Assembly: GCA_964645205.1 (NCBI GenBank)
Contig: CAZYBO010000004.1
Location: 177,623 to 241,622, forward strand
Length of the DNA: 64,000 nucleotides
Reading direction: 5' to 3'
From: an uncultured Rickettsiales bacterium
GTDB lineage: Bacteria; Pseudomonadota; Alphaproteobacteria; Rickettsiales; SXRF01
Shown here: piece after piece, positions 1-54,018 of the stretch
Layout: every line of letters begins with the position of its first letter
How positions within the stretch are numbered: position 1 is the stretch's first letter
Made by a program: the position numbers and the translations under genes
The notes under the pieces: model-generated
What the model was told of the DNA's origin: nothing
Database searches by the model: none
The model's input: the letters and a program-made list of their open reading frames with translations, nothing else

Positions 1-182
1 TGAAATGTAACGTTGGAAAAACGGATCGCGCCCTGCGCATCGTCGCCGGGCTTGCCATAATCGCCGCCGGCATCGTCACGCAAAACTGGCTGGGAGCGAT
101 AGGCTTAGTGCCCCTGCTTACCGGCATCCTACGCTGGTGCCCCGCCTACGTGCCGCTTGGGATTTCGACGGATAAAGCGTAA
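1..182 (+). CDS. DUF2892/YgaP-like small membrane protein, 5' end cut by window edge
   Basis: Frame 3 reads KCNVGKTDRALRIVAGLAIIAAGIVTQNWLGAIGLVPLLTGILRWCPAYVPLGISTDKA, with TAA at 180-182. The CNVGxxDRxxR motif followed by two hydrophobic helices and a WCP motif matches the DUF2892 pattern as I remember it. It is absent from the ORF track because the start lies outside the window. Confidence 0.6.
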   Translation, partial: KCNVGKTDRALRIVAGLAIIAAGIVTQNWLGAIGLVPLLTGILRWCPAYVPLGISTDKA

Positions 183-188
183 ACCGCC

Positions 189-410
189 TCAGCCGATCTT
201 CTTCAGGAAACAGGTTTTCAGCACGAGTCCCTTTACCTTGTCGGCGTTGCATTCGATATGCTCTTCGTCACCGGTTAGGCGGATATTCTTGATCGTGGTG
301 CCGCGCTTGAGCGTCACCGACGTGCCCTTGACCTTTAAATCCTTGATGACCTGAACGCTGTCGCCATCGCTCAACTCCGCGCCGTTGCTGTCTTTTACCT
401 TGATGTCCAT
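189..410 (-). CDS. PhnA/YjdM C-terminal-domain protein (short form lacking the zinc ribbon)
   Basis: 73-aa ORF MDIKVKDSNGAELSDGDSVQVIKDLKVKGTSVTLKRGTTIKNIRLTGDEEHIECNADKVKGLVLKTCFLKK, which resembles the PhnA C-terminal domain. ATG start at 410. Confidence 0.75.
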   Translation of the reverse strand: MDIKVKDSNGAELSDGDSVQVIKDLKVKGTSVTLKRGTTIKNIRLTGDEEHIECNADKVKGLVLKTCFLKKIG

Positions 411-424
411 ATGAAATCTTATCC

Positions 425-707
425 TTAAACGTTTAAAGCCACCGCCTGTGCACGAACATAGACGAGATAGCGCTTGATGAGATCGGCGACCGTGTATTGC
501 TTCGCCTGCGTAGTTTTGAAATAGCGGCCTTCGCGCATCGCCATTTCAGTTTGTTGCCGCCCACTGGCGGGCATCGGTTTTGCACTCGAACATGGCCGAT
601 TGAGAGGAAAAACCGCGAATGCGAATGTTCACGCGGTAGCTGGTTTTGCCGTCAGGCGTTGTCCTCCCTCGCTTCGATGGTTGCCATACGGTGCGCCCCT
701 CATGCCG
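425..707 (-). pseudogene. Tyrosine integrase remnant: N-terminal ~90 codons only, one frameshift, catalytic domain deleted
   Basis: The minus strand reads ...GRTVWQPSKRGRTTPDGKTSYRVNIRIRGFSSQSAMFECKTDARQWAATN and stops at 546-548. After a 1-nt shift it continues as (T)EMAMREGRYFKTTQAKQYTVADLIKRYLVYVRAQ and stops at 425-427. The pattern (K/R)RxxxDGxxxYxxxIRxKG...QSxxFxTKxxAxxWA...ExxxxxGRY is typical of N-termini of tRNA-associated island and phage integrases. There is no initiator codon and no R-H-R-Y catalytic region. Confidence 0.7.
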
Positions 708-831
708 AAAGACTACAAAACATGGCGGTATTATGCAATCCTCAACTTGTTTGAACACGGGTGAAGTTTGGAATAGGCGCAAGTAAATCAGTGGGATAAT
801 GCGAAGCGTTTCGTAGGGGGACAATGTAAGC

Positions 832-1899
832 CTACAGACCTGCACCGTTGACTTGAGAAATCCCATCTTCACTGTTCTTCATCATGTCTAAAATACTTTT
901 TCCATTTATCAGTGGTATGTTCATCATGGGTGCAACTAAGCAACCACTGGCGTGATTCTCATTCTGCCAGCTACGACTAACGACCCCCTTAGTAAGTACA
1001 CCACCGCCAACCAAGATTGGGCTGCCACTCATTTTGCCTGGAATTTTTGCATCAAACTCGAAATTCGGACCAGGCGTAGGGTTTTTCTTTTCAGTTATAT
1101 TGTCTGGATGAATAGTTGTCACTGCGCCAACAGAAACGATTAATTCAGGCTGATAATCATCATCTACGCCAAGCCGAATATTTCTCATTTCAGCATATCC
1201 TATTGCAACGGCGCGATCACCCAGCTTGAGATTATGTAAGCCGATATTTAACGGCTGATAAGGCCCTATAAAGGGCTGCTCCCTAACTTTACAAATTGCT
1301 ATATCAAGATCGAGCTTGAAATCAGGCTTTTGGTGTAAAAGGGGACTTTCAATTTCTCGTCCCCAATGCTGCGTCCATTCAAAAGGACACATAAACCATT
1401 TTGCTTCACGCATCTGCTGAGGAATATCAATAAAGTGAGCTGTTCGCATTGCTGGATTGACCGGCAGCATAATCCCGAACCTCAGTTTTTCGTCAAACTT
1501 ATGGGAATTCTTGTCGATCTGGGTGACACTCGCATAATTCTCATCAACTGGATCACGAAGGACATGAGCAGCAGTCATCAAAAGGCCAGAGGCACTAATG
1601 AAGAATCCAGTGCCTATGCAGCGGATTTCTTTGTCACCTTCATTCCAAGCAACAATCGGTACAATGCTCTGTCTTACTAGAAATTCCGTCGTACCAAATG
1701 AGGCGAAAAGATTATCAAGAATGAACCCTGGCCTTTGGGTCATCAAATTTATTTCGTTTTCAATTTTGAAATAGTTCTTCTGGCAGCCTTCTCGGGGTTT
1801 TAAGTCGATACCTTGCAGATCATGGATTATCCAAACGCCCGTGTCGTTTTTTCTCCAAATCGTTTTTAATATTCCGATATCATCGTGGGTTTTTGTCAC
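832..1899 (-). CDS. Trypsin-like (S1/Trypsin_2) serine protease with no signal peptide and an unknown ~100-aa N-terminal domain
   Basis: 355-aa ORF with candidate catalytic triad contexts TAAHVL (His), DLDIAICKV (Asp) and GKMSGSPILV (Ser). The start is GTG at 1899, directly after an in-frame TAA. The gene is visibly AT-richer than its neighbours. Confidence 0.8.
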   Translation of the reverse strand: MTKTHDDIGILKTIWRKNDTGVWIIHDLQGIDLKPREGCQKNYFKIENEINLMTQRPGFILDNLFASFGTTEFLVRQSIVPIVAWNEGDKEIRCIGTGFFISASGLLMTAAHVLRDPVDENYASVTQIDKNSHKFDEKLRFGIMLPVNPAMRTAHFIDIPQQMREAKWFMCPFEWTQHWGREIESPLLHQKPDFKLDLDIAICKVREQPFIGPYQPLNIGLHNLKLGDRAVAIGYAEMRNIRLGVDDDYQPELIVSVGAVTTIHPDNITEKKNPTPGPNFEFDAKIPGKMSGSPILVGGGVLTKGVVSRSWQNENHASGCLVAPMMNIPLINGKSILDMMKNSEDGISQVNGAGL

Positions 1900-1960
1900 T
1901 TATTTTCCCCAACTGTCCCAGAATTATCCCTTGAACGTTTTCGGCATTTGAACTGGGTGG

Positions 1961-2050
1961 TGGCGGATGAGGTGAGATTCGAACTCACGGTACCCTTGCG
2001 AGTACGGCAGTTTTCAAGACTGCTGCCTTAAACCACTCGGCCACTCATCC
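1961..2050 (-). tRNA. tRNA-Ser (anticodon UGA)
   Basis: The reverse complement is GGATGAGTGGCCGAGTGGTTTAAGGCAGCAGTCTTGAAAACTGCCGTACTCGCAAGGGTACCGTGAGTTCGAATCTCACCTCATCCGCCA. It has acceptor GGATGAG/CTCATCC, anticodon stem GCAGT/ACTGC with loop CTTGAAA, a long variable arm, the T-loop GTTCGAATC, and an encoded CCA. Confidence 0.95.
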
Positions 2051-2107
2051 GTATCGGTCTGCAATAGCAAAACTATGGGGGGAACACCACTATTCTTTAA
2101 TGAGGGG

Positions 2108-2740
2108 CTATGCCTGCATCTTGCGGGGGCGGAACAGCGTTTTGACAAGGATCGTCCGCACAGCGAGAGTAGCGAGGGCAGACAGGACGATGCTGCCTGC
2201 CACGTCCGCCGGGAAATGGACGCCCAGCGATATGCGCGAAATCCCCACCCACAGCACGAGCAGCACGGCGATGCCCCTGCCGTAGCCGCCGAGGAGCGGC
2301 CACAGGCCTGCGGCCATGAGCGTGGCGAAGCTGGTATGGCCGCTGGGGAAGCTGACCAGCGGGTCTTCAGACAGGCGCACGCTGTCCATGATGCGCACGC
2401 TTCCTTCGGGCAGGGCGGCAAACGGCCTGGGGAACTGGAATGTTTCCTTAAGCTCCATAACCCACAGGAGCGAAAGCAGGTAGGCGACCAGCAAGGTGGC
2501 GAGGCAGACGCCCCAGTCCATCAGGCGGTGCGGAGGTTCGGACGGTTTTCTTACCCTGACAAGGTCGTACCAGGCGATGATGCCGATAATCACGCCATAA
2601 ACGGGGAAAATCCTGTATTCGCCCACATGCGAAGCCAGCAACATAAGCGCGTCGCTCGCCGGATTGCCCGCATGGTTGATCAGATAAAAAATCTTTTCGT
2701 TCAGCCCACCCCAATCGTAGGCAATCGCTTTAAACTGCAC
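2108..2740 (-). CDS. PAP2-family phosphatase (membrane)
   Basis: 210 aa and multi-TM. It carries the PAP2 motifs PSGHTSF and SRISLGVHFPADV. GTG start. Confidence 0.85.
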   Translation of the reverse strand: MQFKAIAYDWGGLNEKIFYLINHAGNPASDALMLLASHVGEYRIFPVYGVIIGIIAWYDLVRVRKPSEPPHRLMDWGVCLATLLVAYLLSLLWVMELKETFQFPRPFAALPEGSVRIMDSVRLSEDPLVSFPSGHTSFATLMAAGLWPLLGGYGRGIAVLLVLWVGISRISLGVHFPADVAGSIVLSALATLAVRTILVKTLFRPRKMQA

Positions 2741-2791
2741 AAGCGTATCGCTCCTGAGAACAGGTGGCCAAGCGGAAACCGAAAGTGGAAA

Positions 2792-3115
2792 TTACTTCTT
2801 CGCCGCGGCGCGTGCCTTCTTTGCGTCACGCTCAGCTTGGAACTCAGCGGCGCTTACTTTGCCGTCGCTGTTAGCATCGAGTTCCTTAAAGCGCTTTTCG
2901 GGCTTTGCGAGGAATTCCTGCTTGCTGATGAAGCCGTCATTATCCGTATCGCCACGGAGGCGACCCGTTTTCGCGGCTTTACCGGTAGCGGCGGGCGCAG
3001 TTGCCGGCTTTGCGGCTGCGGGCGCAGCGGCGGGTGCGGCAGGTTCGGCGGCCAGTGCCTGCATCGGGAGTAGCGACACCCCGCAAACGGCAACAATTTT
3101 AGCAAATGTACGCAT
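2792..3115 (-). CDS. Secreted EF-hand calcium-binding protein
   Basis: Signal peptide MRTFAKIVAVCGVSLLPMQALA, then an Ala/Pro-rich linker, then two EF-hand loops (DTDNDGFISKQEF and DANSDGKVSAAEF). Confidence 0.85.
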   Translation of the reverse strand: MRTFAKIVAVCGVSLLPMQALAAEPAAPAAAPAAAKPATAPAATGKAAKTGRLRGDTDNDGFISKQEFLAKPEKRFKELDANSDGKVSAAEFQAERDAKKARAAAKK

Positions 3116-3214
3116 AAGTCAGGCTCCTTGGGTTACGATGGGTTAGGATAGATGATTCGGCGCATTATACGGCACTCTTACGAAAATCCCACAAAAATAT
3201 TCGCAACTGCGAAA

Positions 3215-3580
3215 TTAAGCAGCGCTCTCCAGCAAACCGCCCAGGCTGCGCCCGCCTAAGACATGCACATGGAAGTGGGCAACGCTCTGGGAAGCGTCCG
3301 CCCCGTGGTTGCTGATAATGCGGTAGCCGTCATCCGCAAGGTGAAGCGCCTGCGCCACCTGACGCACGGCGGCGAAGTATCCCTGCACGAACCCTGCGGG
3401 CGCGCGTTCCATGAAATCGTGAAACGACACATACTCGCCCTTCGGCACGACCAGCACATGCACCGGCGCGGCGGGGGCGATGTCCTCGAACGCCAGCGCG
3501 TAGTCGTCTTCATACATTTTTTTGCAGGGAATCTCCCCGCGCAGGATGCGGGCGAAGATGTTGGTCTTATCGTAGGCCAT
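3215..3580 (-). CDS. HIT-family (HinT-like) nucleotide hydrolase
   Basis: Histidine triad HFHVHVLGG. I moved the start to ATG 3580 because GAGGTG lies a few nt upstream; the track's start at 3586 is a GTG. Confidence 0.85.
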   Translation of the reverse strand: MAYDKTNIFARILRGEIPCKKMYEDDYALAFEDIAPAAPVHVLVVPKGEYVSFHDFMERAPAGFVQGYFAAVRQVAQALHLADDGYRIISNHGADASQSVAHFHVHVLGGRSLGGLLESAA

Positions 3581-3587
3581 GGGCACC

Positions 3588-4184
3588 TCAATCTATGCGG
3601 CAGGCTTCGCTGAAGGACAGGCGCGGGCCGCGCGGGTAGAGTTTCGAGGCGTCGCCATAGCCGAGATTACACAGGAAGTTGGATTTGATGTTGGTGACGG
3701 GGAAAAACGCCGCGTCCACTTTCGCGTTGTTGAATCCCGACATCGGGCCGCAATCCAACCCCAGCGCACGCGTCGCCAGCATAAGATACGCGCCCTGCAG
3801 CGAGGAGTTGCGGAACGCGGCGGCTTCGATGCTGGCAGGCTTGCCCGCGAACCAGCTGCGCGCGTCCTTGTTGTGCGGAAAGAGCACGGGGAGTTTTTCG
3901 TAGAATTCCATGTCCTGCGCGATGATGGCGGTGACCGGCGCGGCCATGGTTTTAGCGACATTCCCCGCATCGAGGCACGGTTTCAGCAGCTCCTTGGCGG
4001 CCTGCGATTTCACGAACACTACGCGCATCGGCAGGCAATTGGAAGAGGTCGCGCCCATTTTCGCGAGGTCGTAGATTTGCATGAGCAGGTCGTCTTCCAC
4101 CGGCTTGTCGAGCCATGCGCTGTGGGTGCGCGCTTTGCGAAAAATCGTATCGAGTGCGTCGTCGCTGAGGTTGGCCATGATCAT
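3588..4184 (-). CDS. Nitroreductase-family protein, RutE/YdjA-like (malonic semialdehyde reductase-like)
   Basis: 198 aa. The N-terminus [55 protein letters not shown] resembles RutE-type nitroreductases. There is a 4-nt overlap with the hisE stop. Confidence 0.7.
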
Positions 4185-4510: not shown

Positions 4511-5268
4511 CACATCCTCACGGGAATGGCGGCGTTCTGTAACGCCTGTTTTACTTCATGAATCGTAAATACGCCATAGTGAAAAACGGAGGCTGCCAGC
4601 ACCGCGTCCGCCTTGCCCAGCTGCACGGCGTCCACCGCGTGCTGCAGCGTGCCGATGCCGCCGGAGGCGATCACGGGAACGGACACCGCCTGCGATACGG
4701 CGCGGGTTAAATCCAGATGCACGCCCTGCTTGGTACCGTCGCGATCCATCGAGGTGAGCAATATCTCCCCTGCCCCGAGCGCCGCCATTTTTTTCGCCCA
4801 CTCCACCGCGTCGATACCGGTTGCATTGCGCCCGCCATGCGTGAAAATCTCGTATTTTCCGGGTGCAGTCTGCTTCGCATCGATCGCCACGGTGATGCAT
4901 TGCGAGCCGAATTTTGCCGCCGCCTCGCCCACGAATTCCGGTCGCTTCACCGCCTCGCTGTTGATGGATACCTTGTCCGCGCCCGCCAGCAGCAGGTTGC
5001 GAATATCGTCGAGCTTGCGCACCCCGCCGCCCACCGTCAATGGCATGAAGCATTGCTCGGCCACGGCGGAAATCACGTTATACAGAATCGAGCGGTTGTC
5101 GCTGGTAGCCGTAATATCAAGGAAACACAGCTCATCCGCGCCTTGCGCATCATACAGTTTCGCCTGCTCCACCGGATCGCCCGCATCGCGCAGCTCCACG
5201 AAATTCACGCCTTTGACCACACGGCCGTTATGTACGTCTAAGCAGGGGATGATGCGGGTTTTTAGCAT
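4510..5268 (-). CDS. hisF: Imidazole glycerol phosphate synthase, cyclase subunit
   Basis: 252 aa: [23 protein letters not shown]...ADKVSINS...ASGGIG. This is a canonical HisF. Confidence 0.95.
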
Positions 5269-5981
5269 AGCTTCAGCGCCTCTTCCGGCATGATAGCCCT
5301 GTCATAGAGGGCGCGGCCGATGATGACGCCTTCGATACCGGATGCTTCGTGTTTTTTATAAGCGCGGATATCTTCCAATGAGCTGACGCCGCCGGAGGCA
5401 ATGACGGGGATGGATATTTGTTCCGCCAGCGTAACGGTTTCTTCGACGTTGGAGCCTTTCATGGCGCCGTCGCGTGCGATGTCGGTGTAGATGACGGCGC
5501 AGACGCCGGCGTCTTCGAATTTTTTGGCGAGGTCGGTGGCCAGCATGTCGGAGAGTTCCGCCCAGCCTTCTACCGCCACCCTGCCCTGCTTGGCGTCGAT
5601 GCCCACGGCCACGCGGCCGGGAAAGGCGCGGCAAGCGTCTTTGACCAGCTGTGGGTCGCGCAGCGCCACGGTGCCTAAGATCACGCGTGCGATACCTGCG
5701 TCGAGCCAGTATTCGACCATGCCCATACTGCGGATGCCGCCGCCTAATTGCACCGGCATTTTAATATGTGCGAGGATAGATTTCACCGCCTCTTCGTTCA
5801 CCGGTTTGCCCGCAAACGCGCCGTTCAAATCCACCACATGCAGCCACGAAAATCCCGCGCGCTCGAACAATCGGGCTTGGTCGGCGGGGCTTGAGGAAAA
5901 GACCGTAGCCTTGTCCATTTCACCCTGCAGCAGGCGGACGCATTTGCCGTCTTTCAGGTCGATGGCAGGATAGAGGATCAT
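5262..5981 (-). CDS. hisA: ProFAR isomerase
   Basis: [17 protein letters not shown]... with the RBS GGAGAAGGAAAGG just upstream of ATG 5981. The 35-codon N-terminal extension in the track runs through a palindromic repeat, so I discarded it. Confidence 0.93.
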
Positions 5982-5989
5982 GTCCTTTC

Positions 5990-6097
5990 CTTCTCCTCCC
6001 CCCTTGTGGGGGAGGTTGGGGAGGGGGGGAACTCTCCGCGTGCCGGTGCGTTGATAGAGCCCCCTCTCCCTAACCCTCCCCCACAAGGGGGGAGGGA
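5990..6097. repeat. G/C-rich REP-like palindromic element (imperfect inverted repeat, ~35-bp arms, ~30-bp spacer)
   Basis: Left arm: CCTCCCCCCTTGTGGGGGAGGTTGGGGAGGGGGG (about 5995-6028). Right arm: CCCCTCTCCCTAACCCTCCCCCACAAGGGGGGAGGG (about 6061-6096). The reverse complement of the right arm matches the left arm, with a few mismatches. When read through, it translates as the artefactual [12 protein letters not shown]. Confidence 0.8.
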
Positions 6098-6114
6098 ATA
6101 TAATGGATACATCA

Positions 6115-6648
6115 TCATGTAATCATCGAAATCGGCTCAAGGTTCTTATAGTAAAACCGGCCTGCGATCATGGTGGCGTTGACAAATTCATAGGCTGGGA
6201 GCACGCCCCAGCACGCGTATTTATTTTCCTCGTAGAGCTTGATCGCCGCTTCCTGCGTAGCGCGCACGGAAAGCCGCAGCACGGAGAATCCCTGCGCCCG
6301 GGCTTCGCGCTCGGCGGCTTCCAACAGTTGGCGGGCAAGGCCGTGACCGCGCGCCCACGGTGCGACGAAATGCGCTTCCATCGAGGCGGCAAATGACGAG
6401 GTTTCCTTGCTCGGCCCCGGCTTTACCAACTGGATGCTAGCGGCCAGCGTGCCGTCGAGACGGCCTGCGAACAGCACGCGCTCAGGCACGACCAGCACGC
6501 CTTTCCAGTAGGTTTCGAGGATGTCTTTTCCCGGCGGCACCAGCCAGTTGAAGCCGATGCCGTCGCGGATGGCGTCCTCGGTGGCCTGCACCAGCTCGGT
6601 TAAATCGGCATGGCGGAATTCGGTGATACGTTCTACGCGGGTGACCAT
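6115..6648 (-). CDS. GNAT-family N-acetyltransferase
   Basis: 177 aa. The acetyl-CoA binding region is [35 protein letters not shown] (Q/RxxGxG/A-type motif). Confidence 0.85.
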
Positions 6649-6650
6649 GC

Positions 6651-7262
6651 TTACATCTTTACAAAATTCTCAAGCAGCCTAAGGCCGGTCGCCTGACTTT
6701 TTTCCGGGTGGAACTGCGTGCCCATGATATTACCCTGCCCTACCACCGCCGCAAGCGTTTGTCCATACTCGCAGGTGGCGATGATGTCGGAAGCGTTTTT
6801 GCATTGTGCGTGGTAGCTGTGCACGAAATAGGCATGTGCGCCGGGTGCGATGCCGTCGAGCAGCGGATGAGCGTGCGGAAATTGCAGCTCGTTCCAGCCC
6901 ATGTGGGGGATTTTCATGCCGGGCTTTGCGGCAAGCGGCACCACTTCGCCCGCGAGCCAGCCCAAGCCCCTATGCACGCCGTGCTCGTGACCGGTTTCAA
7001 ACAGCATCTGCATGCCAACGCACACGCCTAAAAACATTTTTTTGCGTTGCAGGATTTGTTCGCTGAGCGCATCGAGCATGCCCGGAATGGCGGTAAGCCC
7101 CGCCATGCAATCGGCAAACGCGCCGACGCCCGGCAGCACGATGTGGCTGGCGTTGCGCAAGGCGGCAGGATTGCTGGTCACCTCGACCGCCTTCGTCACG
7201 CGCGCAAACGCCTTGGCGACGGAGCGCAAATTGCCGGAGCCGTAATCGATGATGGCGAGCAT
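6651..7262 (-). CDS. hisH: Imidazole glycerol phosphate synthase, glutaminase subunit
   Basis: MLAIIDYGSGNLRSV...LPGVGAF...GVCVGMQML...HSY. Start set at ATG 7262; the upstream 50 codons of the track ORF are not HisH-like. Confidence 0.93.
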   Translation of the reverse strand: MLAIIDYGSGNLRSVAKAFARVTKAVEVTSNPAALRNASHIVLPGVGAFADCMAGLTAIPGMLDALSEQILQRKKMFLGVCVGMQMLFETGHEHGVHRGLGWLAGEVVPLAAKPGMKIPHMGWNELQFPHAHPLLDGIAPGAHAYFVHSYHAQCKNASDIIATCEYGQTLAAVVGQGNIMGTQFHPEKSQATGLRLLENFVKM

Positions 7263-17902: not shown

Positions 17903-19306
17903 CTACCCCGGCAATCCCGGCACAAGCTCGCCCGGAGTATTGATTTTATCCTGATAACGCGCGGCAGGGCTTGCACCTGCATATTTCTGAGCAGAAGGGG
18001 CGGCGGTTTGCTCTGTCGGCGCAGGCACGGCGTGCATATCAATCTTGTAATACTGCTTCAGCTCCGACGCGAGCTGGGAATAGATCACGGCAATATCCGG
18101 CGCTTTTTCCTTGAAATGCTCCTTGAGATCGACCGCGATTTCAGCCAGCAGCTGCGGCACTTTCTCGCGCGGCATTTTCGCTAGCGTGTCGGTGATGTGC
18201 GCGTGCAGTTCCTTGGAATCCACTTCCCGCGAACCGTAGGGCGCGAAGAAACGGATCACGTAGCCGGCGATGAATACAAGGTTGCCGACGCCGCCGAAAT
18301 AATCGCGGTATTCCTTTCCGCGGAACTTGAATTTCTGCTTGGTGAGCCTGTCATGCGCCATCCATGCGGCGCCAACACCTTCAACCACGGAGCTGAGCCG
18401 GAACGTTACGTTCTCCCGGAATTTATCAAGCAGGGTCGGCGGCGTGGGGTGATAGGGATCGGGCTCGATGGAACCCAGCGAGATGAATTTACCCAACAGC
18501 GTGATAAGCCCGACCTTGTAGGTCACTTCATTGACATCGTTCTTAGCGGCTTTATGCGCCTCTCTGAACGAACCGGATTTGAGTTTTCTAAACCCCTCCC
18601 CCCATTTGGTGACAGGGTAGGAAAGCGATGCGGCACCGAACAAGCGCAAGCCGATTTCGCCACCGCTGACGGAATATTGCTGAATGAGCGCATGCGCCTT
18701 TTTACCTAGCCCGGCCTCTTCCTTCCCGTCCGCGCGGCGCGCGCTGCAATCCTTGTCCGGGCTGATCGTATCCTGCCCATCAGGAAGATGCTTTCCGAAT
18801 TCATCGTTGATGTGTTTTTTGATCACGCGCAACTGGTGCGGATCAGCCTTTTCCTGAGCGCCGAACGTAATATTGGTAACGTTGGCGATGAGGTTCGAGA
18901 TGGCGAAGCTGGCGATGCCTGCCCGATCTGCGCCGGGTTTGCTGCTGGTGAAGCTGGACACGAGCTGGAGCGATTGCCCCACGATGCTGGTAATACCGCG
19001 CCATTTCCAGGGATTGAATTTTTTCTCAACCACTGGCGGCACGAATGCGTCGCCATGCCCGGCGAACGCAGCCAGCAACGCGTCCGGTTTGGATGTCCCG
19101 CGCGTAACCAGCAAAGTCTGGTTGTGCATGCGGGTTTCGGCCAGCACTTCCTGCCCGATGCCGGGCGCGGCAAGCAACGCCTGCAATGCGGCTCTGTCAC
19201 CACCCTTGCGCAGGTGGAACACGCTATAGGCGCCACCGTCCCCTGCAGGTTCGATCTCGATCGACCGGATCAGGGCATGCGGATTTTTATTATGATAAAG
19301 TGGCAT
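17903..19306 (-). CDS. Hypothetical 467-aa protein with no recognisable family
   Basis: Long ORF with a clean ATG and GC-rich third codon positions. It contains several amphipathic or hydrophobic stretches (AGIASFAISNLIANVTNITFG, VGLITLLGKFISLGSI, FGGVGNLVFIAGYVIRFFAP). I recognise no catalytic motif. Confidence 0.7.
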   Translation of the reverse strand: MPLYHNKNPHALIRSIEIEPAGDGGAYSVFHLRKGGDRAALQALLAAPGIGQEVLAETRMHNQTLLVTRGTSKPDALLAAFAGHGDAFVPPVVEKKFNPWKWRGITSIVGQSLQLVSSFTSSKPGADRAGIASFAISNLIANVTNITFGAQEKADPHQLRVIKKHINDEFGKHLPDGQDTISPDKDCSARRADGKEEAGLGKKAHALIQQYSVSGGEIGLRLFGAASLSYPVTKWGEGFRKLKSGSFREAHKAAKNDVNEVTYKVGLITLLGKFISLGSIEPDPYHPTPPTLLDKFRENVTFRLSSVVEGVGAAWMAHDRLTKQKFKFRGKEYRDYFGGVGNLVFIAGYVIRFFAPYGSREVDSKELHAHITDTLAKMPREKVPQLLAEIAVDLKEHFKEKAPDIAVIYSQLASELKQYYKIDMHAVPAPTEQTAAPSAQKYAGASPAARYQDKINTPGELVPGLPG

Positions 19307-20064: not shown

Positions 20065-21648
20065 TTACGCCAGTTTCCCATATCCCGGTAGCGTGAGGAA
20101 TTCCATGAAGCTCTCCTGCGTCACCAGTTCGGTGAGCATGGAAGCTGCCTTGTCGTAAGGCAGGCCGGTTGACGGCAGTTTTTTCAATTCCTCATCCAGT
20201 AGTTGCAGATATAGCGATTCGGTGACCGGACGCCCATCGTCGAGCTTGCCCTTGTCATGGTGAATCCATTGCCAGATTTGCGAGCGCGCGATTTCGGCGG
20301 TGGCGGCGTCTTCCATCAGGTTAAAAATCGGCACGCAGCCTACTCCTGTCAGCCAATTGGCGAGATATTGCACGGATACGCTGATATTGTTGCGCAAGCC
20401 CGCTTCGGTAATCGTGCCTGCAGGAACGGTGAGTAAATCGGCAGCGGTCACCTGCACATCCTCACGTTTGCGATCCACCTGATTTTTGCCTTTCATCAAG
20501 CGGTCGAACACTTCCATCGCCACCGGCACCAGACCGGGATGCGCTACCCATGTGCCGTCATGCCCGTCGCCCGCCTCGCGCTCCTTGTCGGCGCGCACCA
20601 TGGCGAAGGCTTTTTCATTCGCCGCCTCGTCGTTTTTCACCGGGATGAACGCGCTCATGCCGCCCATGGCGAACGCGCCGCGACGGTGGCAGGTTTTAAT
20701 CAGCAGCAGCGAATAGGTACGCAGGAAATGCGTGGTCATGGTCACCTGCCCGCGGTCGGGCAGCACGAACGCCCCGTGCTTGCTGAATTTCTTGATGAAG
20801 CTGAAAATATAATCCCAGCGCCCGCAATTGAGCGCGACGCAGTAATCCTTCAGCGCATGCATGATTTCGTCCATCTCGAATGTGGCGAGGATGGTTTCTA
20901 CCAGCACGGTGGCTTTGATCGTGCCTTTTTTTAAACCAAGCATAGACTCGGAATAGGCAAAAATATCCGCCCAGAGCTGCGCTTCTTCATGGCTTTCGAG
21001 CTTGGGCAGGTAGAAATAAGGTGCGGTGCCTTTGGCGATCAGCTTTTTGGCGTTGAGCAGGAAATAGACGCCGAAATCGAGCAGCGCGCCGGGAATCGGC
21101 TTGCCTGCGAATTGCACGTGTTTTTCATCCAAATGCCAGCCGCGCGGACGCACGATAATAACGGCAGGCTTGTCGCCCACGGCATATTTTTTACCTTCGG
21201 GGCTTGTATAGCTGATCGTACCATCGGCGTAATCACGCAAATTGACCTGCCCATCCATGACCGATTCCCATGTGGGCGAAAGCGAATCCTCGAAATCAGC
21301 CATGAATACTTTTGCGCCGGAGTTCAGCGCGTTGATGATCATCTTGCGCTCGACCGGCCCGGTAATTTCCACGCGTCGATCCTGAAGGTCGGCGGGTATC
21401 GGCGCCACCGTCCAATCGCCCTCGCGGATAGATTTGGTGGTTGCTAAAAAATTAGGCAGCTCACCCGCATCAAGGCGCGCTTGACGATCCGCCCGTTTTT
21501 TAAGCAACTCGTCGCGCCTGCCCGCAAATTGCGCGGCAAGCTCGGCTACGAACGCATTAACCTCCGTAGTCATAATGGCCTGGTATTCGGGCTTCATCGT
21601 GCCGGTGATGGCAAGGGTGGATTGGGTGGTGCGTGCGGCTTCCGGCAT
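20065..21648 (-). CDS. aceB: Malate synthase A
   Basis: 527 aa, the size and overall sequence of A-type malate synthase (...RPRGWHLDEKH...GGMSAFIP...). The RBS GGAGAG precedes the ATG. Confidence 0.9.
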   Translation of the reverse strand: MPEAARTTQSTLAITGTMKPEYQAIMTTEVNAFVAELAAQFAGRRDELLKKRADRQARLDAGELPNFLATTKSIREGDWTVAPIPADLQDRRVEITGPVERKMIINALNSGAKVFMADFEDSLSPTWESVMDGQVNLRDYADGTISYTSPEGKKYAVGDKPAVIIVRPRGWHLDEKHVQFAGKPIPGALLDFGVYFLLNAKKLIAKGTAPYFYLPKLESHEEAQLWADIFAYSESMLGLKKGTIKATVLVETILATFEMDEIMHALKDYCVALNCGRWDYIFSFIKKFSKHGAFVLPDRGQVTMTTHFLRTYSLLLIKTCHRRGAFAMGGMSAFIPVKNDEAANEKAFAMVRADKEREAGDGHDGTWVAHPGLVPVAMEVFDRLMKGKNQVDRKREDVQVTAADLLTVPAGTITEAGLRNNISVSVQYLANWLTGVGCVPIFNLMEDAATAEIARSQIWQWIHHDKGKLDDGRPVTESLYLQLLDEELKKLPSTGLPYDKAASMLTELVTQESFMEFLTLPGYGKLA

Positions 21649-21710
21649 GGGACTCTCCTGATGATTAGCGTTCAGGAGCGAACCTAGCGAAGCATCCCGC
21701 CAATGACAAC

Positions 21711-21744
21711 GGCAAAAAAAGGCCGCCCGGTGAAGGGCGGCCTG
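21711..21744 (-). terminator. Rho-independent terminator of pilin copy 1
   Basis: The minus strand reads AGGCCGCCCTTCACCGGGCGGCCTTTTTTTGCC, a GC stem plus a T7 tract, about 25 nt after the pilin stop. Confidence 0.8.
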
Positions 21745-21766
21745 AAGTCAAAGCAACGGTAGTAAC

Positions 21767-22600
21767 TTAGAAGCTCGCACGAACGAGCGCCTGGCAGAGG
21801 CGGTTGTTCTGCACGCCGTTCGAGGTGCCGGTGTTGTACACGGCGGCGGCGGACAAACAGTTCGCAGCGCCTGCGGTGGACACATCGGTGTTGAGGTTAA
21901 AGTTCGCCGTGTTGTTGGTTGCCTGCACGGTACCGGTGTTCGGCACGCCATCATCCTTCTTGGTATCGATCTGGAAGGCTTCCAGCGGGGTCAGGTTCGA
22001 GGTGATCGTAGGCGTGCTGACGTTGGCCGCGAAAGTAACGCCTGCGATACGGAACACGTTCACGCCGGCCATGCCGGGATAGGTAAGCGTAGCGCCACCC
22101 GTGTAAGCCATGAGCAGGTTACCGTTGCCGATCTTGGCGGCGGGCAACGTGGTAGCTACCGGCATCGCAGCAGGCGTGCTGCTCGAAATGGACGCCGTGC
22201 TCGTCATCGGTTCGCTGATCAGGTTGGAAAGCGCAAGCTGGTGCCAGAAGGCGGCTACTTCACCCGATACCTGCACGCGCGTGCCGGCGAAATCGGTGAG
22301 GACGCCATCGCCTGCGATCATCGCGGCGTTACCGCCGGTGGGAACGCTGGCGGCAGCGAAGAAGCTCGTGCCGTTCTGGAGGTCGCCCGGCATGCCGTTA
22401 TATTTGCTGCGGAACGTGTTTACCGCTGCGTCGTATTTTTCAATCTGCGAGACCATCGCGCGAATCTGCGCGGCCTTGATCAGATCCTGACCGACCAGTA
22501 CACCGCCTACGATCAGGCCGATGATAACGAGTACGATCGATAATTCGATAAGCGTGAAACCTTGCTGGCCTTGCTTGGTGGGGGATGGGGTCTTTTGCAT
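21767..22600 (-). CDS. Type IV pilin / pseudopilin with class III signal peptide, copy 1 (277 aa, ~263 aa mature)
   Basis: MQKTPSPTKQGQQG|FTLIELSIVLVIIGLIVGGVLVG carries the prepilin cleavage/methylation motif (Gly-1, Phe+1, Glu+5). The C-terminal Cys pair (NCLSAAAVYNTGTSNGVQNNRLC) looks like a D-region disulfide loop. AAGGAG lies 5 nt before the ATG. Confidence 0.9.
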   Translation of the reverse strand: MQKTPSPTKQGQQGFTLIELSIVLVIIGLIVGGVLVGQDLIKAAQIRAMVSQIEKYDAAVNTFRSKYNGMPGDLQNGTSFFAAASVPTGGNAAMIAGDGVLTDFAGTRVQVSGEVAAFWHQLALSNLISEPMTSTASISSSTPAAMPVATTLPAAKIGNGNLLMAYTGGATLTYPGMAGVNVFRIAGVTFAANVSTPTITSNLTPLEAFQIDTKKDDGVPNTGTVQATNNTANFNLNTDVSTAGAANCLSAAAVYNTGTSNGVQNNRLCQALVRASF

Positions 22601-22613
22601 GTGATCTCCTTGC

Positions 22614-22619
22614 ATTATA
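22614..22619 (-). promoter_or_regulatory. Candidate -10 box (TATAAT) for pilin copy 1
   Basis: The minus strand reads ...GTGTAATAGCTAAAGTATAATGCAAGGAGATCACATG. This is a perfect TATAAT 14 nt upstream of the ATG region. No convincing -35 lies at 17-bp spacing. Confidence 0.35.
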
Positions 22620-22630
22620 CTTTAGCTATT

Positions 22631-22671
22631 ACACAAAAACACACGGGGATGCGTGCTTCGCATCCCCGTGT
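22631..22671 (-). terminator. Rho-independent terminator of pilin copy 2
   Basis: The minus strand reads ACACGGGGATGCGAAGCACGCATCCCCGTGTGTTTTTGTGT, a 13-bp stem followed by a T-rich tract, 11 nt after the copy 2 stop. Confidence 0.8.
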
Positions 22672-22681
22672 GACATCATCG

Positions 22682-23515
22682 TTAGAAGCTCGCGCGAACA
22701 AGCGCCTGGCAGAGGCGGTTGTTCTGCACGCCGTTCGAGGTGCCGGTGTTGTACACGGCGGCGGCGGACAAACAGTTCGCAGCGCCTGCGGTGGACACAT
22801 CGGTGTTGAGGTTAAAGTTCGCCGTGTTGTTGGTTGCCTGCACGGTACCGGTGTTCGGCACGCCATCATCCTTCTTGGTATCGATCTGGAAGGCTTCCAG
22901 CGGGGTCAGGTTCGAGGTGATCGTAGGCGTGCTGACGTTGGCCGCGAAAGTAACGCCTGCGATACGGAACACGTTCACGCCGGCCATGCCGGGATAGGTA
23001 AGCGTAGCGCCACCCGTGTAAGCCATGAGCAGGTTACCGTTGCCGATCTTGGCGGCGGGCAACGTGGTAGCTACCGGCATCGCAGCAGGCGTGCTGCTCG
23101 AAATGGACGCCGTGCTCGTCATCGGTTCGCTGATCAGGTTGGAAAGCGCAAGCTGGTGCCAGAAGGCGGCTACTTCACCCGATACCTGCACGCGCGTGCC
23201 GGCGAAATCGGTGAGGACGCCATCGCCTGCGATCATCGCGGCGTTACCGCCGGTGGGAACGCTGGCGGCAGCGAAGAAGCTCGTGCCGTTCTGGAGGTCG
23301 CCCGGCATGCCGTTATATTTGCTGCGGAACGTGTTTACCGCTGCGTCGTATTTTTCAATCTGCGAGACCATCGCGCGAATCTGCGCGGCCTTGATCAGAT
23401 CCTGACCGACCAGTACACCGCCTACGATCAGGCCGATGATAACGAGTACGATCGATAATTCGATAAGCGTGAAACCTTGCTGGCCTTGCTTGGTGGGGGA
23501 TGGGGTGGTCTGCAT
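22682..23515 (-). CDS. Type IV pilin / pseudopilin, copy 2 (mature protein identical to copy 1)
   Basis: MQTTPSPTKQGQQG|FTLIEL... From residue 4 onward it is the same as copy 1. The track start at 23563 adds 16 non-pilin residues. ATG 23515 is preceded by AGGAG. Confidence 0.9.
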   Translation of the reverse strand: MQTTPSPTKQGQQGFTLIELSIVLVIIGLIVGGVLVGQDLIKAAQIRAMVSQIEKYDAAVNTFRSKYNGMPGDLQNGTSFFAAASVPTGGNAAMIAGDGVLTDFAGTRVQVSGEVAAFWHQLALSNLISEPMTSTASISSSTPAAMPVATTLPAAKIGNGNLLMAYTGGATLTYPGMAGVNVFRIAGVTFAANVSTPTITSNLTPLEAFQIDTKKDDGVPNTGTVQATNNTANFNLNTDVSTAGAANCLSAAAVYNTGTSNGVQNNRLCQALVRASF

Positions 23516-23715
23516 TGTGGAAACTCCTAGGATGGTTAAATGACGTATCCGCACTAGTACCAAGCGCGCAACTAGCTATAGTTTCTAACATTTAAAGGTT
23601 ACTAAATGATTACCGTGCCGGGATGAAACAACTCGCAAACAGGCGATAATATCGAGCGAATACAGCTCGATACAAAACCTACATCCTGAAAACTATTTTT
23701 GGAGAGAATTATTTC

Positions 23716-23747: not shown

Positions 23748-24290
23748 TTAGCTCGCCGCTTCTTTTCCAGCTTCCGTCTTGATCGTAGCAACGGCGGCAT
23801 CGAGGTGCGTTTGCGTGCACAGGCCGAGCAGCACAGGATCGCGCGGCTTGATGTTCCCGGAATTCCAGTGCGATTTGGTGCGCACGGCGTCGATCGTGTT
23901 TTTGGTGGTGCCCACGAGCTTGGCGATCTGCGCGTCGGTCATCTGCGGGAAATGCTTGATGAGCCATGCGATCGCATCCGGCTTGTCCTGACGGCGTGCG
24001 ACCGGCGTGTAGCGACTGCCCTTGGTTTTCTGCGCGATATATTGCTTGGCGGTGTTGAGGATGGAAAGGCGTGCGCTGCTGTCAGCTTCGCAACGCTTGA
24101 TTTCATCAACCGTAAGCTGGCCGCTGGCGAGCGGATCCATGCCGCGAATGCCGCCTGCAACTTCACCATCAGCAATGCCCTGCACTTCCAGCGGGTGCAT
24201 GCCGCAGAATTCAGCGACCTGCTCGAAGGTCAGCGCAGTGTTTTCAACCAGCCATACGGCGGTGGCTTTCGGCATCAGGGGCAGCGTCAT
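23748..24290 (-). CDS. trcR: DUF1013 protein (TrcR-type alphaproteobacterial cell-cycle regulator family)
   Basis: MTLPLMPKATAVWLVENTALTFEQVAEFCGMHPLEVQGIADGEVA...TKNTIDAVRTKSHWNSGNIKPRDPV is highly characteristic of DUF1013. Confidence 0.8.
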   Translation of the reverse strand: MTLPLMPKATAVWLVENTALTFEQVAEFCGMHPLEVQGIADGEVAGGIRGMDPLASGQLTVDEIKRCEADSSARLSILNTAKQYIAQKTKGSRYTPVARRQDKPDAIAWLIKHFPQMTDAQIAKLVGTTKNTIDAVRTKSHWNSGNIKPRDPVLLGLCTQTHLDAAVATIKTEAGKEAAS

Positions 24291-50987: not shown

Positions 50988-52886
50988 ATGACGACTTTGA
51001 CACTACATGTAGTTGGCATGGCTTACCGCTTACCCTCGAATTTGAATTTTGCCGCCCTACTCTGCTGCACATTGGCGAGCGTGGTTGCGCACCCCGTCGC
51101 TGCGGAGACGCTGATGTACGGCAAGAACGGCTCGGGGCGCTACGCCACCGGCAGCCGCACGGAACCGACCGACCCTTACGCCAACCCTTACCAGCAGCGC
51201 CGCGGCACCGCACGCGCGCAAGCGATCCAGAACCGTTACCCTTCCGCCACGCAGCAGCCCACACAAACGGCTTCCGCTGCACCTGCGCGCACGCCGTCAA
51301 CCCCGCTGAGAATTGTCGTACCCAACCTTGAAGCCGCACAGCAAAAGGGCGGCACCATGGTGCGGATGACGCCCGCTCCGCGCGTTTCAACGCCCGCGTA
51401 CCAACCGCCTCCACCTGTCGAAATAGCCAGCGCCGAACCGGTTATATCACCGCCGGAATATGGCGCCGCCGAACCGCGTTTCGTGGCCGATGCCGAACCG
51501 TCCGCGCCGCCGATTGAAAAATCCTTTGCCGCACCCAAACCGCTTTCGACCACTGCCGAATATAGCGCGCAGAGCGTGATGGCGCGCGCGGTGGCGCCGC
51601 TGATGAGCATTATCGCCAGCATCGCACCCGAATCACCCGCACCCGCTGTCAAAACCGCATCCGTGCAAATAGATCAGGCGGAGCAATTCGCCGCACTTGC
51701 GCCTGCCGCCGGTGAGCCTGCACCCACCGTACCGCTGATCGCAGCGCCACAACAACCTGCCGCTCCGACTCCTGAAGAAAAACCGGAAGCGCCGACCGCA
51801 CCGGTTCCTGCCGCACCGGTTGCACCAAAGGCACCTGAACCGAAAGCCGCGGCACCCGCGCCGGAACCTGTTGCACAACCTGCATCTGAGCCTGCCGCCA
51901 GCCCCGCCAGCGCCACGCTGGATGAAGCGCTGCAAACAGCCGCGCCGGAGCCTAAGGCCGAAACGCCGGTAGTGCCCAAGAAAAAACCGATGACGAAAAA
52001 AGAACCGGAAGCGCCGAAAGCCACTAAGGTTGCCGCGCCCGTCAAGCCGTTGATCGAAGAGCCCCCGGCGACCGAAGCGGCTGAAACGCCCAGTGAGCCT
52101 GCTCCCACCCTGAGCGCGGCCAGCAAAACCATCCTCGATAAAATCAACCCAAAGCCCGATGCACCGAAAAAAGGCAAGCACGAGCCGCTTTCCATCGACC
52201 GCGCCAAGGATACGCAGGAGATTTCCGAAGGATCCCCCGTCGCGGAGACCGCTTCGGTGCACCACGAATCCATGGGCATCAAGATCGAGGTGAAAAGCCG
52301 CCCGGTGAATTACGATTACGAGTTGGAAAAGGCTTATAACGCGCTTATCGCCGGGCAGACGGATGTAGCGGTCGCCATTTATAAATCCGTGCTCGAAAAC
52401 AACCCCTCCAACAAGGGTGCGCTATTTGGGCTGGCCACGACCTACCACCGCTCCGGGCAGATCGATATGGCGAGACCGTATTACGGAAAGCTGTTGTCGA
52501 TCGACCCGCAAAACCGCGACGGGCTGAATAATTTCCTCGTCCTGCTGGCCGATGAAGCGCCCGAAGAAGCCCTGTCGCAGATGGAAAAACTCGAGGCGAA
52601 AAACCCCGGCTTCAGCCCGATCCCGGCGCAAATGGCGATTATTTACCAGAAGCTCGGAAAAACAGAGCTGGCGGGTGAAAAAATGCTCAAGGCCATCACG
52701 TTGGCGCCGGAAAACCTGACTTATCGCTATAACCTCGCCATTATGCTCGATAAACAGCATAAATATGAGCAGGCGATGCCGCTGTACAGACAGCTTATTG
52801 AAGCACAGCAGCGCGGGGAAGCCATACCCGGTAATGTCCAGAAAATTCAGGAAAGATTAACCTTTATTAGCTCTAATAGACCCTGA
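50988..52886 (+). CDS. Secreted TPR-repeat protein with a long Pro/Ala-rich low-complexity linker
   Basis: Signal-like AYRLPSNLNFAALLCCTLASVVAHPVAAE (the true start may be ATG 51018). About 350 aa are P/A/E-rich. The C-terminal ~200 aa hold TPR-type repeats (AYNALIAGQTDVAVAIYKSVLENNPSN..., LAIMLDKQHKYEQAMPLYRQLI). It lies immediately upstream of pilT. Confidence 0.7.
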   Translation: MTTLTLHVVGMAYRLPSNLNFAALLCCTLASVVAHPVAAETLMYGKNGSGRYATGSRTEPTDPYANPYQQRRGTARAQAIQNRYPSATQQPTQTASAAPARTPSTPLRIVVPNLEAAQQKGGTMVRMTPAPRVSTPAYQPPPPVEIASAEPVISPPEYGAAEPRFVADAEPSAPPIEKSFAAPKPLSTTAEYSAQSVMARAVAPLMSIIASIAPESPAPAVKTASVQIDQAEQFAALAPAAGEPAPTVPLIAAPQQPAAPTPEEKPEAPTAPVPAAPVAPKAPEPKAAAPAPEPVAQPASEPAASPASATLDEALQTAAPEPKAETPVVPKKKPMTKKEPEAPKATKVAAPVKPLIEEPPATEAAETPSEPAPTLSAASKTILDKINPKPDAPKKGKHEPLSIDRAKDTQEISEGSPVAETASVHHESMGIKIEVKSRPVNYDYELEKAYNALIAGQTDVAVAIYKSVLENNPSNKGALFGLATTYHRSGQIDMARPYYGKLLSIDPQNRDGLNNFLVLLADEAPEEALSQMEKLEAKNPGFSPIPAQMAIIYQKLGKTELAGEKMLKAITLAPENLTYRYNLAIMLDKQHKYEQAMPLYRQLIEAQQRGEAIPGNVQKIQERLTFISSNRP

Positions 52887-52905: not shown

Positions 52906-54018
52906 ATGGAAATCACCGATCTCCTGATTTATACGGACAAGAATAAAGCGTCCGACCTTCACCTTTCTGCCACCAATCCCCCCATCCTGCGCATCCACGG
53001 GGAAATGGTGCCGTACCAGTCGCCCGCGCTCGGCGTGGACGATGTGAAGCGCATGCTCTATTCCATCATGACCGAGCAGCAGCGCTCCGATTACGAGCGC
53101 GATCTGGAAATCGACTTCGCGATTTCGTTCAGCAAGGAAATGCGTTTTCGCGTCAACGCGTTCAATACGCTAAACGGTCCTGCCGCCGTGCTACGTACCA
53201 TCCCCAACAAAATCCTTTCGCTTGAAGAGCTGGGCACGCCGGACGTACTGAAAAAACTCTGCCACCTGCATAAAGGCCTCATTCTCGTGACCGGCCCTAC
53301 CGGTTCGGGTAAATCGACGACGATGGCGGCCATGCTCGACTACGTAAACGCCAACGAAGCCAAGCACATCATCACCATCGAAGACCCGGTGGAATTCATC
53401 CACACCTCGAAAAAATCGCTGATCAACCAGCGCGAGGTGGGCAAGAACACCAAATCTTTCGCCAAGGCGCTGCGCAGCGCGCTGCGCGAAGACCCGGACA
53501 TCGTGCTGGTGGGCGAATTGCGCGACATCGAAACCATCCAGCTCGCGCTGACCGCCGCCGAAACGGGGCACTTGGTCATGGGCACGCTGCACACCAATTC
53601 CGCGCCTAAAACCATCGACCGTATCATCGACGTGTTCCCTGCCAACGACAAGGAAATGGTGCGCGCGATGCTGTCCGTATCGCTCGAAGGCGTCGTCACG
53701 CAGGCGCTGCTCAAGAAAAACGGCGGCGGCCGCGTAGCCGTGCACGAAATCATGCTGGGCACCGGCGCGGTGCGTAACCTGATCCGCGAAGGCAAGGTAC
53801 CGCAGCTATTCTCCATCATGCAATTGGGCAGCAAGCTCGGCATGTGCACGATGAAAGACAGTATCTACGGATTGCTGGAAAAGAATATCATCACCGAAGA
53901 AGTCGCACGCAGCGCGCTCGCCAGCAGTTCCAGCGACGATTCGGAAGAAGGCGCGCAATTGCCCGGCAATAAACGTCCCGGCGGCGGTTCCGCAGCCAAG
54001 TCCGCACATTCATTCTAG
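52906..54018 (+). CDS. pilT: Type IV pilus retraction ATPase PilT
   Basis: Walker A GPTGSGKST, Asp box, AETGHLVMGTLHTNSA, and the PilT-type N-terminus DLHLSATNPPILRIHG. Confidence 0.9.
   Translation: MEITDLLIYTDKNKASDLHLSATNPPILRIHGEMVPYQSPALGVDDVKRMLYSIMTEQQRSDYERDLEIDFAISFSKEMRFRVNAFNTLNGPAAVLRTIPNKILSLEELGTPDVLKKLCHLHKGLILVTGPTGSGKSTTMAAMLDYVNANEAKHIITIEDPVEFIHTSKKSLINQREVGKNTKSFAKALRSALREDPDIVLVGELRDIETIQLALTAAETGHLVMGTLHTNSAPKTIDRIIDVFPANDKEMVRAMLSVSLEGVVTQALLKKNGGGRVAVHEIMLGTGAVRNLIREGKVPQLFSIMQLGSKLGMCTMKDSIYGLLEKNIITEEVARSALASSSSDDSEEGAQLPGNKRPGGGSAAKSAHSF

Follow-up and report, generated by a model that had tools for sequence, protein, structure and literature searches.

The question raised by the locus described here is how two neighbouring genes came to share almost every nucleotide of their coding sequences (CDSs) while the DNA around them is unrelated. 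The locus encodes type IV pilins and lies within a 64,000-nt stretch (hereafter the window) of contig CAZYBO010000004.1 from the assembly GCA_964645205.1 of an uncultured Rickettsiales bacterium (positions 177,623 to 241,622 of the forward strand). Two pilin genes, each of 834 nt including the stop codon and encoding a prepilin of 277 amino acids (aa), are placed on the minus strand: copy 1 at 21767..22600 and copy 2, the one proximal to a gene of a TrcR-family regulator, at 22682..23515. They are arranged head to tail and in register, with an offset of exactly 915 nt. A preliminary description of this DNA had reported two 834-nt head-to-tail pilin genes with this period, and both the open reading frames (ORFs) and a base-by-base comparison bear it out. 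The pair constitutes the only repeat of at least 40 nt within the 64-kb window and is therefore far beyond what chance would produce.

The whole-CDS comparison revealed 5 nucleotide differences in 834 positions (99.4% identity). Over the 825 nt between 21767 and 22591 the base-by-base comparison found mismatches solely at 21779/22694 and 21785/22700, both synonymous (codon 272 CTC/CTT, Leu; codon 274 CGT/CGC, Arg), so that the earlier observation of a shared block identical save for two silent substitutions is correct. Its claim that the copies diverge at leader codons 2-3 and in the upstream DNA likewise stands: the ATG is common to both, codon 2 differs synonymously (CAA/CAG), codon 3 (AAG/ACC) specifies Lys in one copy and Thr in the other, and outside the CDS the two units match at a random level only. 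The pairwise alignment that had been proposed added nothing to these five differences, all of which are situated at the CDS ends, at most 9 nt from the ATG or at most 19 nt from the stop codon; the probability of such an arrangement under uniform placement is about 4e-8. Between them extends a tract of perfect identity of 806 nt (21786..22591 versus 22701-23506, minus strand), in which none of approximately 160 four-fold degenerate sites differs.

The prepilin leaders, MQKTPSPTKQGQQG in copy 1 and MQTTPSPTKQGQQG in copy 2, have the form MQ(K/T)TPSPTKQGQQG and are followed by FTLIELS, with cleavage after Gly14. As the sole amino-acid difference lies within the leader, which is cut off on processing, both genes give the same mature protein. 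Its 263 aa are identical between the copies and include Cys248 and Cys269, in agreement with the previously described mature length of about 263 aa and C-terminal Cys pair.

The similarity does not continue into the noncoding DNA. The genes are separated by a unique spacer of 81 nt (22601..22681, minus strand), which holds the copy 2 terminator as well as the short 5' region preceding copy 1, and which is unlike both the DNA downstream of copy 1 (21686-21766) and that upstream of copy 2 (23516-23596). Each gene is followed by its own predicted intrinsic terminator: a 14-bp stem with 10 G-C pairs and a U-tract for copy 2 (22640..22672, minus strand), and a 9-bp stem followed by UUUUUUU, with an unlike sequence, for copy 1 (21720..21743, minus strand). 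The Shine-Dalgarno sequences are AAGGAG for copy 1 (22606..22611, minus strand) and AGGAG, in a context unlike that of copy 1, for copy 2 (23524..23528, minus strand). The expression "perfect tandem duplication", used in the preliminary description, must thus be abandoned, since the spacer matches neither flank and the terminators and ribosome-binding sites differ. Of the period of 915 nt only 825-834 nt are common, and the repeat unit is the CDS and not a 915-nt segment. The unrelated spacer, terminators and ribosome-binding sites exclude a simple segmental duplication.

The best explanation of the twin identity is, with good probability, that older paralogs have evolved in concert through gene conversion. 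Two old tandem paralogs, separate and intact, and likely the major-subunit genes of a retractile type IVa-like pilus, would have been the starting point. Intrachromosomal gene conversion, i.e. non-reciprocal homologous recombination of the RecA/double-strand-break-repair type, would then have overwritten one CDS with the other, probably repeatedly and recently enough for no synonymous change to appear over 806 nt, and the perfect tract may be read as the homogenised one. Conversion would stop at the limits of homology, with the identity ending at the CDS ends, and the residual differences would remain at those ends, where conversion is expected to be least efficient; a distribution with all differences at the CDS edges is what gene conversion predicts. 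Moreover, since the noncoding flanks are unrelated while 806 nt of coding DNA have gained no synonymous change, the CDSs appear to have been homogenised after the flanks differed. Of the two origins named earlier (gene conversion or very recent duplication), the anatomy supports the first, whereas the second fails because the spacer matches neither flank. As to direction, there is a weak preference for copy 2 as donor and copy 1 as recipient. The recombination mechanism, its direction and the benefit of having twin genes are points that we infer.

The comparison with relatives suggested in the preliminary description showed that the same locus holds either one pilin gene or pairs at approximately 63%, 70% and 90% nucleotide identity. 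The local order is conserved and comprises an enoyl-CoA hydratase gene, trcR, the pilin gene(s) and then PagL. The TrcR-family regulator gene of the window (23748..24290, minus strand; Pfam PF06242, E = 4.7e-64) is the upstream neighbour of the pilin locus, and the same neighbour was found in five relatives (L009, L011, L012, L013 and L016). Two of these, L011 and L012, have one pilin gene at this locus, while the others have two, sharing 68% amino-acid and ~63% nucleotide identity in L009, 83% and ~70% in L013, and ~90% nucleotide identity in L016, where 51 synonymous and 26 non-synonymous codon differences were counted. Where within-genome paralogs were compared (P0003/P0004, 68%; P0009/P0018, 83%; 50-64% to other genomes), as in L009 and L013, each pilin proved closest to its partner, and the L016 pair is contained in one 90%-identity cluster. 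For the window pair, the 99.4% nucleotide identity contrasts with an amino-acid identity of at most 64% to any other genome. The flanks within the pairs of L009 and L013 are at random-level identity. Those of the L016 pair, whose identity begins at the ATG, are unrelated too, except that the downstream terminators have the same stem, with a different loop. A screen of ten multi-member clusters for near-identical pairs yielded L016 as the one further case, the other clusters grouping different assemblies.

A gradient running from 63% through 70% and 90% to 99.4% at a single conserved locus is the hallmark of concerted evolution, with the window as the most recently homogenised pair. Several properties of such evolution are found here together: paralogs that are closer than orthologs, synonymous sites included, an identity that is bounded, unrelated flanks, and diverged pairs in syntenic position. 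That a pair was already present in the ancestor is the parsimonious reading that these loci suggest, and repeated independent duplications, each copying the CDS only, would be less parsimonious.

Four points weigh against this explanation. Short-read assembly or polishing with ambiguously mapped reads might have erased a few interior differences, in which case the identity might be, for example, 98-99% instead of 100%. The intergenic DNA is too diverged to establish orthology of the window spacer with the spacers of relatives. Conversion between paralogs of ~65-70% identity, as found in relatives, would be inefficient, and the pair may never have diverged much, having been homogenised continuously since an old duplication. 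Finally, the sole promoter-like element of copy 1, a TATAAT hexamer (22614-22619, minus strand), is located just 13 nt before its ATG. As for the orthology of spacers across species, BLASTn with a word size of 7 against L009, L011, L013 and L015 aligned only coding sequences (TrcR, pilin and PagL), and spacer orthology was rejected as a candidate line of evidence; of the intergenic DNA, only a short block in the promoter region of copy 2 proved conserved.

Among the rival explanations, an assembly or polishing artefact survives best, although we consider it unlikely. According to it both genes exist, but the assembly merged their interiors into a single consensus and the true identity is lower, or the copy number is not two. 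All surviving differences are indeed no more than 19 nt away from unique flanking DNA, a distance over which short reads could still have phased them, and the relatives are all metagenome-assembled genomes (MAGs); should the assembly derive from short reads, a few differences at the very centre of the gene could be lost. On the other hand, with the repeat on either side of the unique 81-nt spacer, there must be molecules that read repeat-spacer-repeat, and the genes truly lie in tandem. Reads or read pairs anchored in the flanks would also have phased any differences located 20-300 nt inside the repeat, a region in which none are seen. Both proteins are recorded from the same contig, and the fact that this 316-kb contig crosses an 806-nt perfect repeat suggests that long reads were used.

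A very recent segmental tandem duplication, produced by unequal crossing-over or replication slippage and too young to have diverged, has a still lower probability, even though it would account for the head-to-tail orientation and for near-perfect identity that includes synonymous sites. Contiguous copying predicts a spacer composed of copy 1 downstream and copy 2 upstream DNA and, as shown above, neither matches; a fresh event of this kind was rejected on this comparison. Each copy also has a terminator and a ribosome-binding site of its own, flanks cannot be randomised while 806 nt of coding DNA gain no synonymous change, and in relatives the locus contains pairs that have diverged.

Least probable of all is a programmed device for antigenic, phase or copy-number variation (similar to Neisseria pilE/pilS) or an amplifiable array, for which the hypervariable surface patches of the family and its arrays of 2 to at least 4 genes (L014) could be cited, but which is contradicted by copies so identical that they offer no sequence diversity to exchange, by two genes that are both complete with start codon, ribosome-binding site and terminator, and by a window with no silent or partial cassette and no other repeats or inverted repeats. 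Neither tblastn nor a six-frame scan for the motif G-F-[ST]-L-[IL]-E found silent cassettes, partial copies or further prepilin genes in the window. The earlier suggestion that the pair could serve as a substrate for recombination-based variation found no support in the window, which contains no silent or partial pilin copies. Direct repeats of ~0.8 kb can recombine, deleting or amplifying a unit, and copy-number heterogeneity in the population through the 0.8-kb direct repeats is plausible. Such repeats are prone to mis-assembly, deletion and amplification, and the copy number in related MAGs therefore needs to be treated with caution.

Concerted evolution by gene conversion has a well-studied parallel in the tufA/tufB genes of Salmonella enterica and Escherichia coli. 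In Salmonella this conversion is RecA-dependent, processive, confined to the repeated gene and rarer toward the gene ends (PMC5485169). In both systems two full-length paralogs are near-identical, including synonymous sites, within unrelated flanks, conversion is limited by the ends of homology, and the product is one made at high levels and required in large amounts, presumably so in the case of the pilin. The tuf genes, however, lie in inverted orientation at a distance of 762 kb from each other, whereas the pilin genes are adjacent and direct; the adjacency and direct orientation make unequal crossing-over and deletion also possible for the pilin pair. Furthermore, the tuf differences are at 12 dispersed sites, whereas the five differences of the pilin pair are all at the ends. 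In the text of a survey listing 26 concertedly evolving prokaryotic genes no pilin appears (PMC6053082).

Two pilin systems offer further comparisons. Streptococcus sanguinis also has adjacent major-pilin genes, pilE1 and pilE2, feeding one machine (PMC10628169, bioRxiv 10.1101/459388), but its pilins differ from each other, are much smaller and form a heteropolymer in a monoderm host, while the identical products of the window genes would be expected to form a homopolymer. Neisseria pilE/pilS shares with the process proposed for our locus non-reciprocal recombination between pilin gene copies. There, however, silent, partial and divergent cassettes diversify one expressed gene, whereas here two complete genes would be homogenised, and a tblastn search with the pilin against the window found the two complete genes only.

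The upstream regions of the two copies differ. Copy 2 is preceded, 98 nt upstream, by the direct-repeat motif GTAA-N7-GTAAC (GTAATCATTTAGTAAC; 23598..23613, minus strand), which has a single match in the window and none upstream of copy 1. It forms the core of a block upstream of copy 2 that aligns with the DNA upstream of the first L009 gene and of the single L011 gene, and in relatives the motif is located at ~9830 (L009), ~9808 (L011) and ~7813 (L013). This conservation suggests that copy 2 occupies the ancestral position. The motif resembles a CtrA box, a resemblance that is not demonstrated membership: it has the spacing and the direct repeat of the box, but G replaces the first T of each half-site. 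The CtrA box is TTAA-N7-TTAA(C), and pilA of Caulobacter crescentus is activated by CtrA via several such sites (PMC11264516); L013 carries an exact CtrA consensus (TTAATTCTTTGTTAAC). In both Caulobacter and the window an alphaproteobacterial pilin gene stands behind a direct-repeat box similar to TTAA-N7-TTAA, although the Caulobacter PilA is a small Flp-type (T4c/Tad) pilin and the window motif reads GTAA-N7-GTAAC rather than TTAA; CtrA binding in the window is putative. For 9 of 23 family pilin genes, the 300 nt upstream contain a relaxed form, [TG]TAA-N7-[TG]TAA, on the sense strand, with a background of 47 matches in 510 kb (both strands counted); as this pattern was set after seeing the data, the enrichment is indicative only.

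Copy 1 starts ~40 nt downstream of the strong copy 2 terminator and has a short, unrelated 5' region, in which the TATAAT hexamer (22619-22614) appears too near the ATG for a normal leader. The spacer RNA is predicted to fold with -33.3 kcal/mol (z = -5.1), and in this fold the Shine-Dalgarno region of copy 1 is base-paired with the U-tract that follows the terminator of copy 2 (22601-22640, minus strand). In read-through transcripts the ribosome-binding site of copy 1 might, according to the model, be masked. A regular-expression scan found no sigma-54 promoter of the TGGCA-N6/7-TTGC type upstream of either copy, a sigma-70 scan gave nothing convincing on the minus strand, and Rfam, used to search the pilin leaders for riboswitches or known RNAs, gave only two sub-threshold matches, both over the copy 1 terminator. 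Judged by their sequences, the twin genes look like independent units with different control. Since copy 2 alone keeps the CtrA-box-like motif, the two genes probably provide one protein under different control or in a higher dose. We infer that the cell gains the same protein under two regimes, or more of it, and that the differing cis-elements point at least as much to different regulation as to the selection for dosage proposed in the preliminary description.

The pilin itself has the expected features of a type IV pilin: the sequence ...QQG|FTLIELSIVLVIIGLIVGG, a leader ending in Gly, Phe+1, Glu+5 and a hydrophobic N-terminal helix. The N-terminal motif scored 30.6 bits with Pfam N_methyl PF07963 (cut-off 21.2) and 29.5 bits with TIGR02532 (cut-off 16.3), and beyond this methylation motif Pfam and NCBIfam recognise nothing in the protein. 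Homologs number in the thousands; the best 120, aligned over most of their length, are all 254-332 aa long save for one fragment of 153 aa, and the nearest is merely 61-64% identical, with none closer in the collections searched. The head domain alone (residues 71-277) matched 1015 cluster representatives (50% identity) with E <= 0.001 among 1.84 billion representatives, and nearly all of the matches listed have 250-320 aa. The protein is accordingly a member of a big unnamed family of 250-320 aa, found in MAGs labelled Alphaproteobacteria or Rickettsiales. In a survey of 1,955 major type IVa (T4a) pilins the mature length was 141 +/- 25 aa (range 42-297), and pilins of at least 166 aa were called "large" (PMC11046646). 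With 263 aa, the mature pilin is ~5 standard deviations above this mean and near the top of the surveyed range, yet typical of its own family; the earlier label "unusually large" holds against the survey and not within the 250-320-aa family.

The proposed structure prediction was performed with AlphaFold2 on an alignment of 119 sequences and gave a predicted local distance difference test score (pLDDT) of 93.1 and a predicted template modelling score (pTM) of 0.86. The model contains a 51-residue alpha1 helix (residues 17-67), a very long alpha-beta loop of ~93 residues (68-160) with short helices, and a beta-sheet of strands 161-167, 181-189, 198-200, 225-228, 249-251 and 269-274. A helix (205-215) inserted in the sheet region leads to the invariant K214-x-D216-D217, and the likewise invariant Cys248/Cys269 pair closes the C-terminus. 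According to this model, the extra ~100 residues are mainly an enlarged alpha-beta loop and insertions around the sheet. Besides the invariant K214, D216 and D217, the residues D212 and G218 are almost invariant, which defines a D-x-K-x-D-D-G segment after helix 205-215; this segment could be a metal-binding or subunit-interface site. A separate model of the head domain (window 21770-22399; pLDDT 92.9, pTM 0.89) had no neighbour in a Foldseek search of the PDB (best E = 1.4). Similarity of the head domain to any solved pilin was not detectable by Foldseek. A comparison is offered by PilA of Myxococcus xanthus (208 aa), an oversized T4a-type pilin working with PilT, whose extra mass is in the C-terminal globular domain (PMC11046646). 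The window pilin differs from it in its 263-aa mature form, one Cys pair instead of several, a 14-aa leader and an uncultured alphaproteobacterial host. Large pilins are described as enriched in some lineages, predatory ones included (PMC11046646).

A machine of the T4a type is predicted ~28 kb from the twin genes. It comprises a TPR protein (50988-52886), two retraction ATPases of the PilT/PilU family (52906-54018 and 54028-55167, plus strand; TIGR01420, 472 and 418 bits with a cut-off of 319), a PilC-like platform protein (59214-60416, minus strand) and a PilB-like extension ATPase (60423-62249, minus strand) with an MshE-type N-terminus binding cyclic di-GMP. Three consecutive ORFs (285, 215 and 570 aa; 55923-59133, minus strand), flanked by an ABC ATPase gene on one side and the PilC/PilB genes on the other, have no Pfam/NCBIfam match; by position they could encode alignment or platform components (equivalents of PilM/N/O/P). 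The window ORFs scanned yielded neither a prepilin peptidase nor a secretin. In the relative L015 a family pilin gene and a secretin gene are immediate neighbours, and the locus also contains PilT-type ATPase genes at a distance of ~6 kb. The PilT/PilU matches and Phe+1 are T4a features, while the 14-aa leader and the mature length of 263 aa exceed the usual T4a range. As the window holds no other prepilin gene or pilin fragment, the twin genes most likely encode the major pilus subunit.

The family occurs in the Alphaproteobacteria, a class more familiar for its Tad/Flp pili. In the predatory alphaproteobacterium Micavibrio aeruginosavorus the highly expressed genes include GMV_1530, a prepilin gene of 744 nt (PMC3189940, supplement file 4). 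Close to it are a secretin gene, a twitching-motility ATPase gene and the genes of two hypothetical proteins of ~255 aa (PMC3189940). This mirrors the order in L015; the likeness concerns gene order and gene lengths only, and membership of GMV_1530 in the family is not claimed.

Further observations concern the surroundings of the pilin genes in the family. In L016, a distant family member, the pair is placed at 5010-6789 of its contig (JGI 3300050207, contig Ga0502764_0002985) in the same enoyl-CoA hydratase-TrcR locus, and the neighbouring TrcR gene, of a cell-cycle regulator family, is kept even though the pilin is only ~45% identical to that of the window. This adjacency may reflect a functional tie between the pilin and cell-cycle control. 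At least 4 consecutive family pilin genes are present on one 4-kb contig (L014; JGI 3300072960, 1-3984), with pairwise amino-acid identities of 61-72% and 73-93 nt of the alpha1-coding region perfectly identical between copies. On the other side of the locus, a malate synthase gene (window 20065-21648, minus strand) separates the pilin pair from PagL, whereas in L009 nothing separates the pilin genes from PagL. Toxin-antitoxin modules (MazEF, Gp49, PIN) occupy the position after the pilin gene in L011 and L015. The locus appears to be prone to insertions on its 3' side. Adjoining PagL is a 467-aa ORF (window 17903-19306, minus strand) that matches no Pfam/NCBIfam family.

Homogenised tandem paralogs are textbook biology, and the twin genes alone change little. 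They do provide a clean example of the limits of conversion, in which leftover differences persist only at the edges of homology, as models of processive conversion in tufA/tufB lead one to expect. The upstream motif and the TrcR neighbour suggest a tie of T4a pilus expression to alphaproteobacterial cell-cycle control. Taken jointly, and only as a tentative and rather doubtful proposal, these observations would describe an uncultured lineage with a retractile T4a pilus built from an undescribed class of ~260-aa pilins, whose head fold is unlike solved structures and whose locus is tied to cell-cycle circuitry (TrcR and the CtrA-box-like motif); recurrent gene conversion would allow two genes with different wiring to make the same subunit, only one of them being subject to cell-cycle or developmental control. 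Tandem paralogs evolving in concert and large T4a pilins are phenomena of already known kinds. More interesting are the unstudied family of giant pilins to which the twin genes draw attention, and for whose head domain Foldseek found no solved structural neighbour, and the conserved CtrA-box-like motif kept by copy 2 alone.

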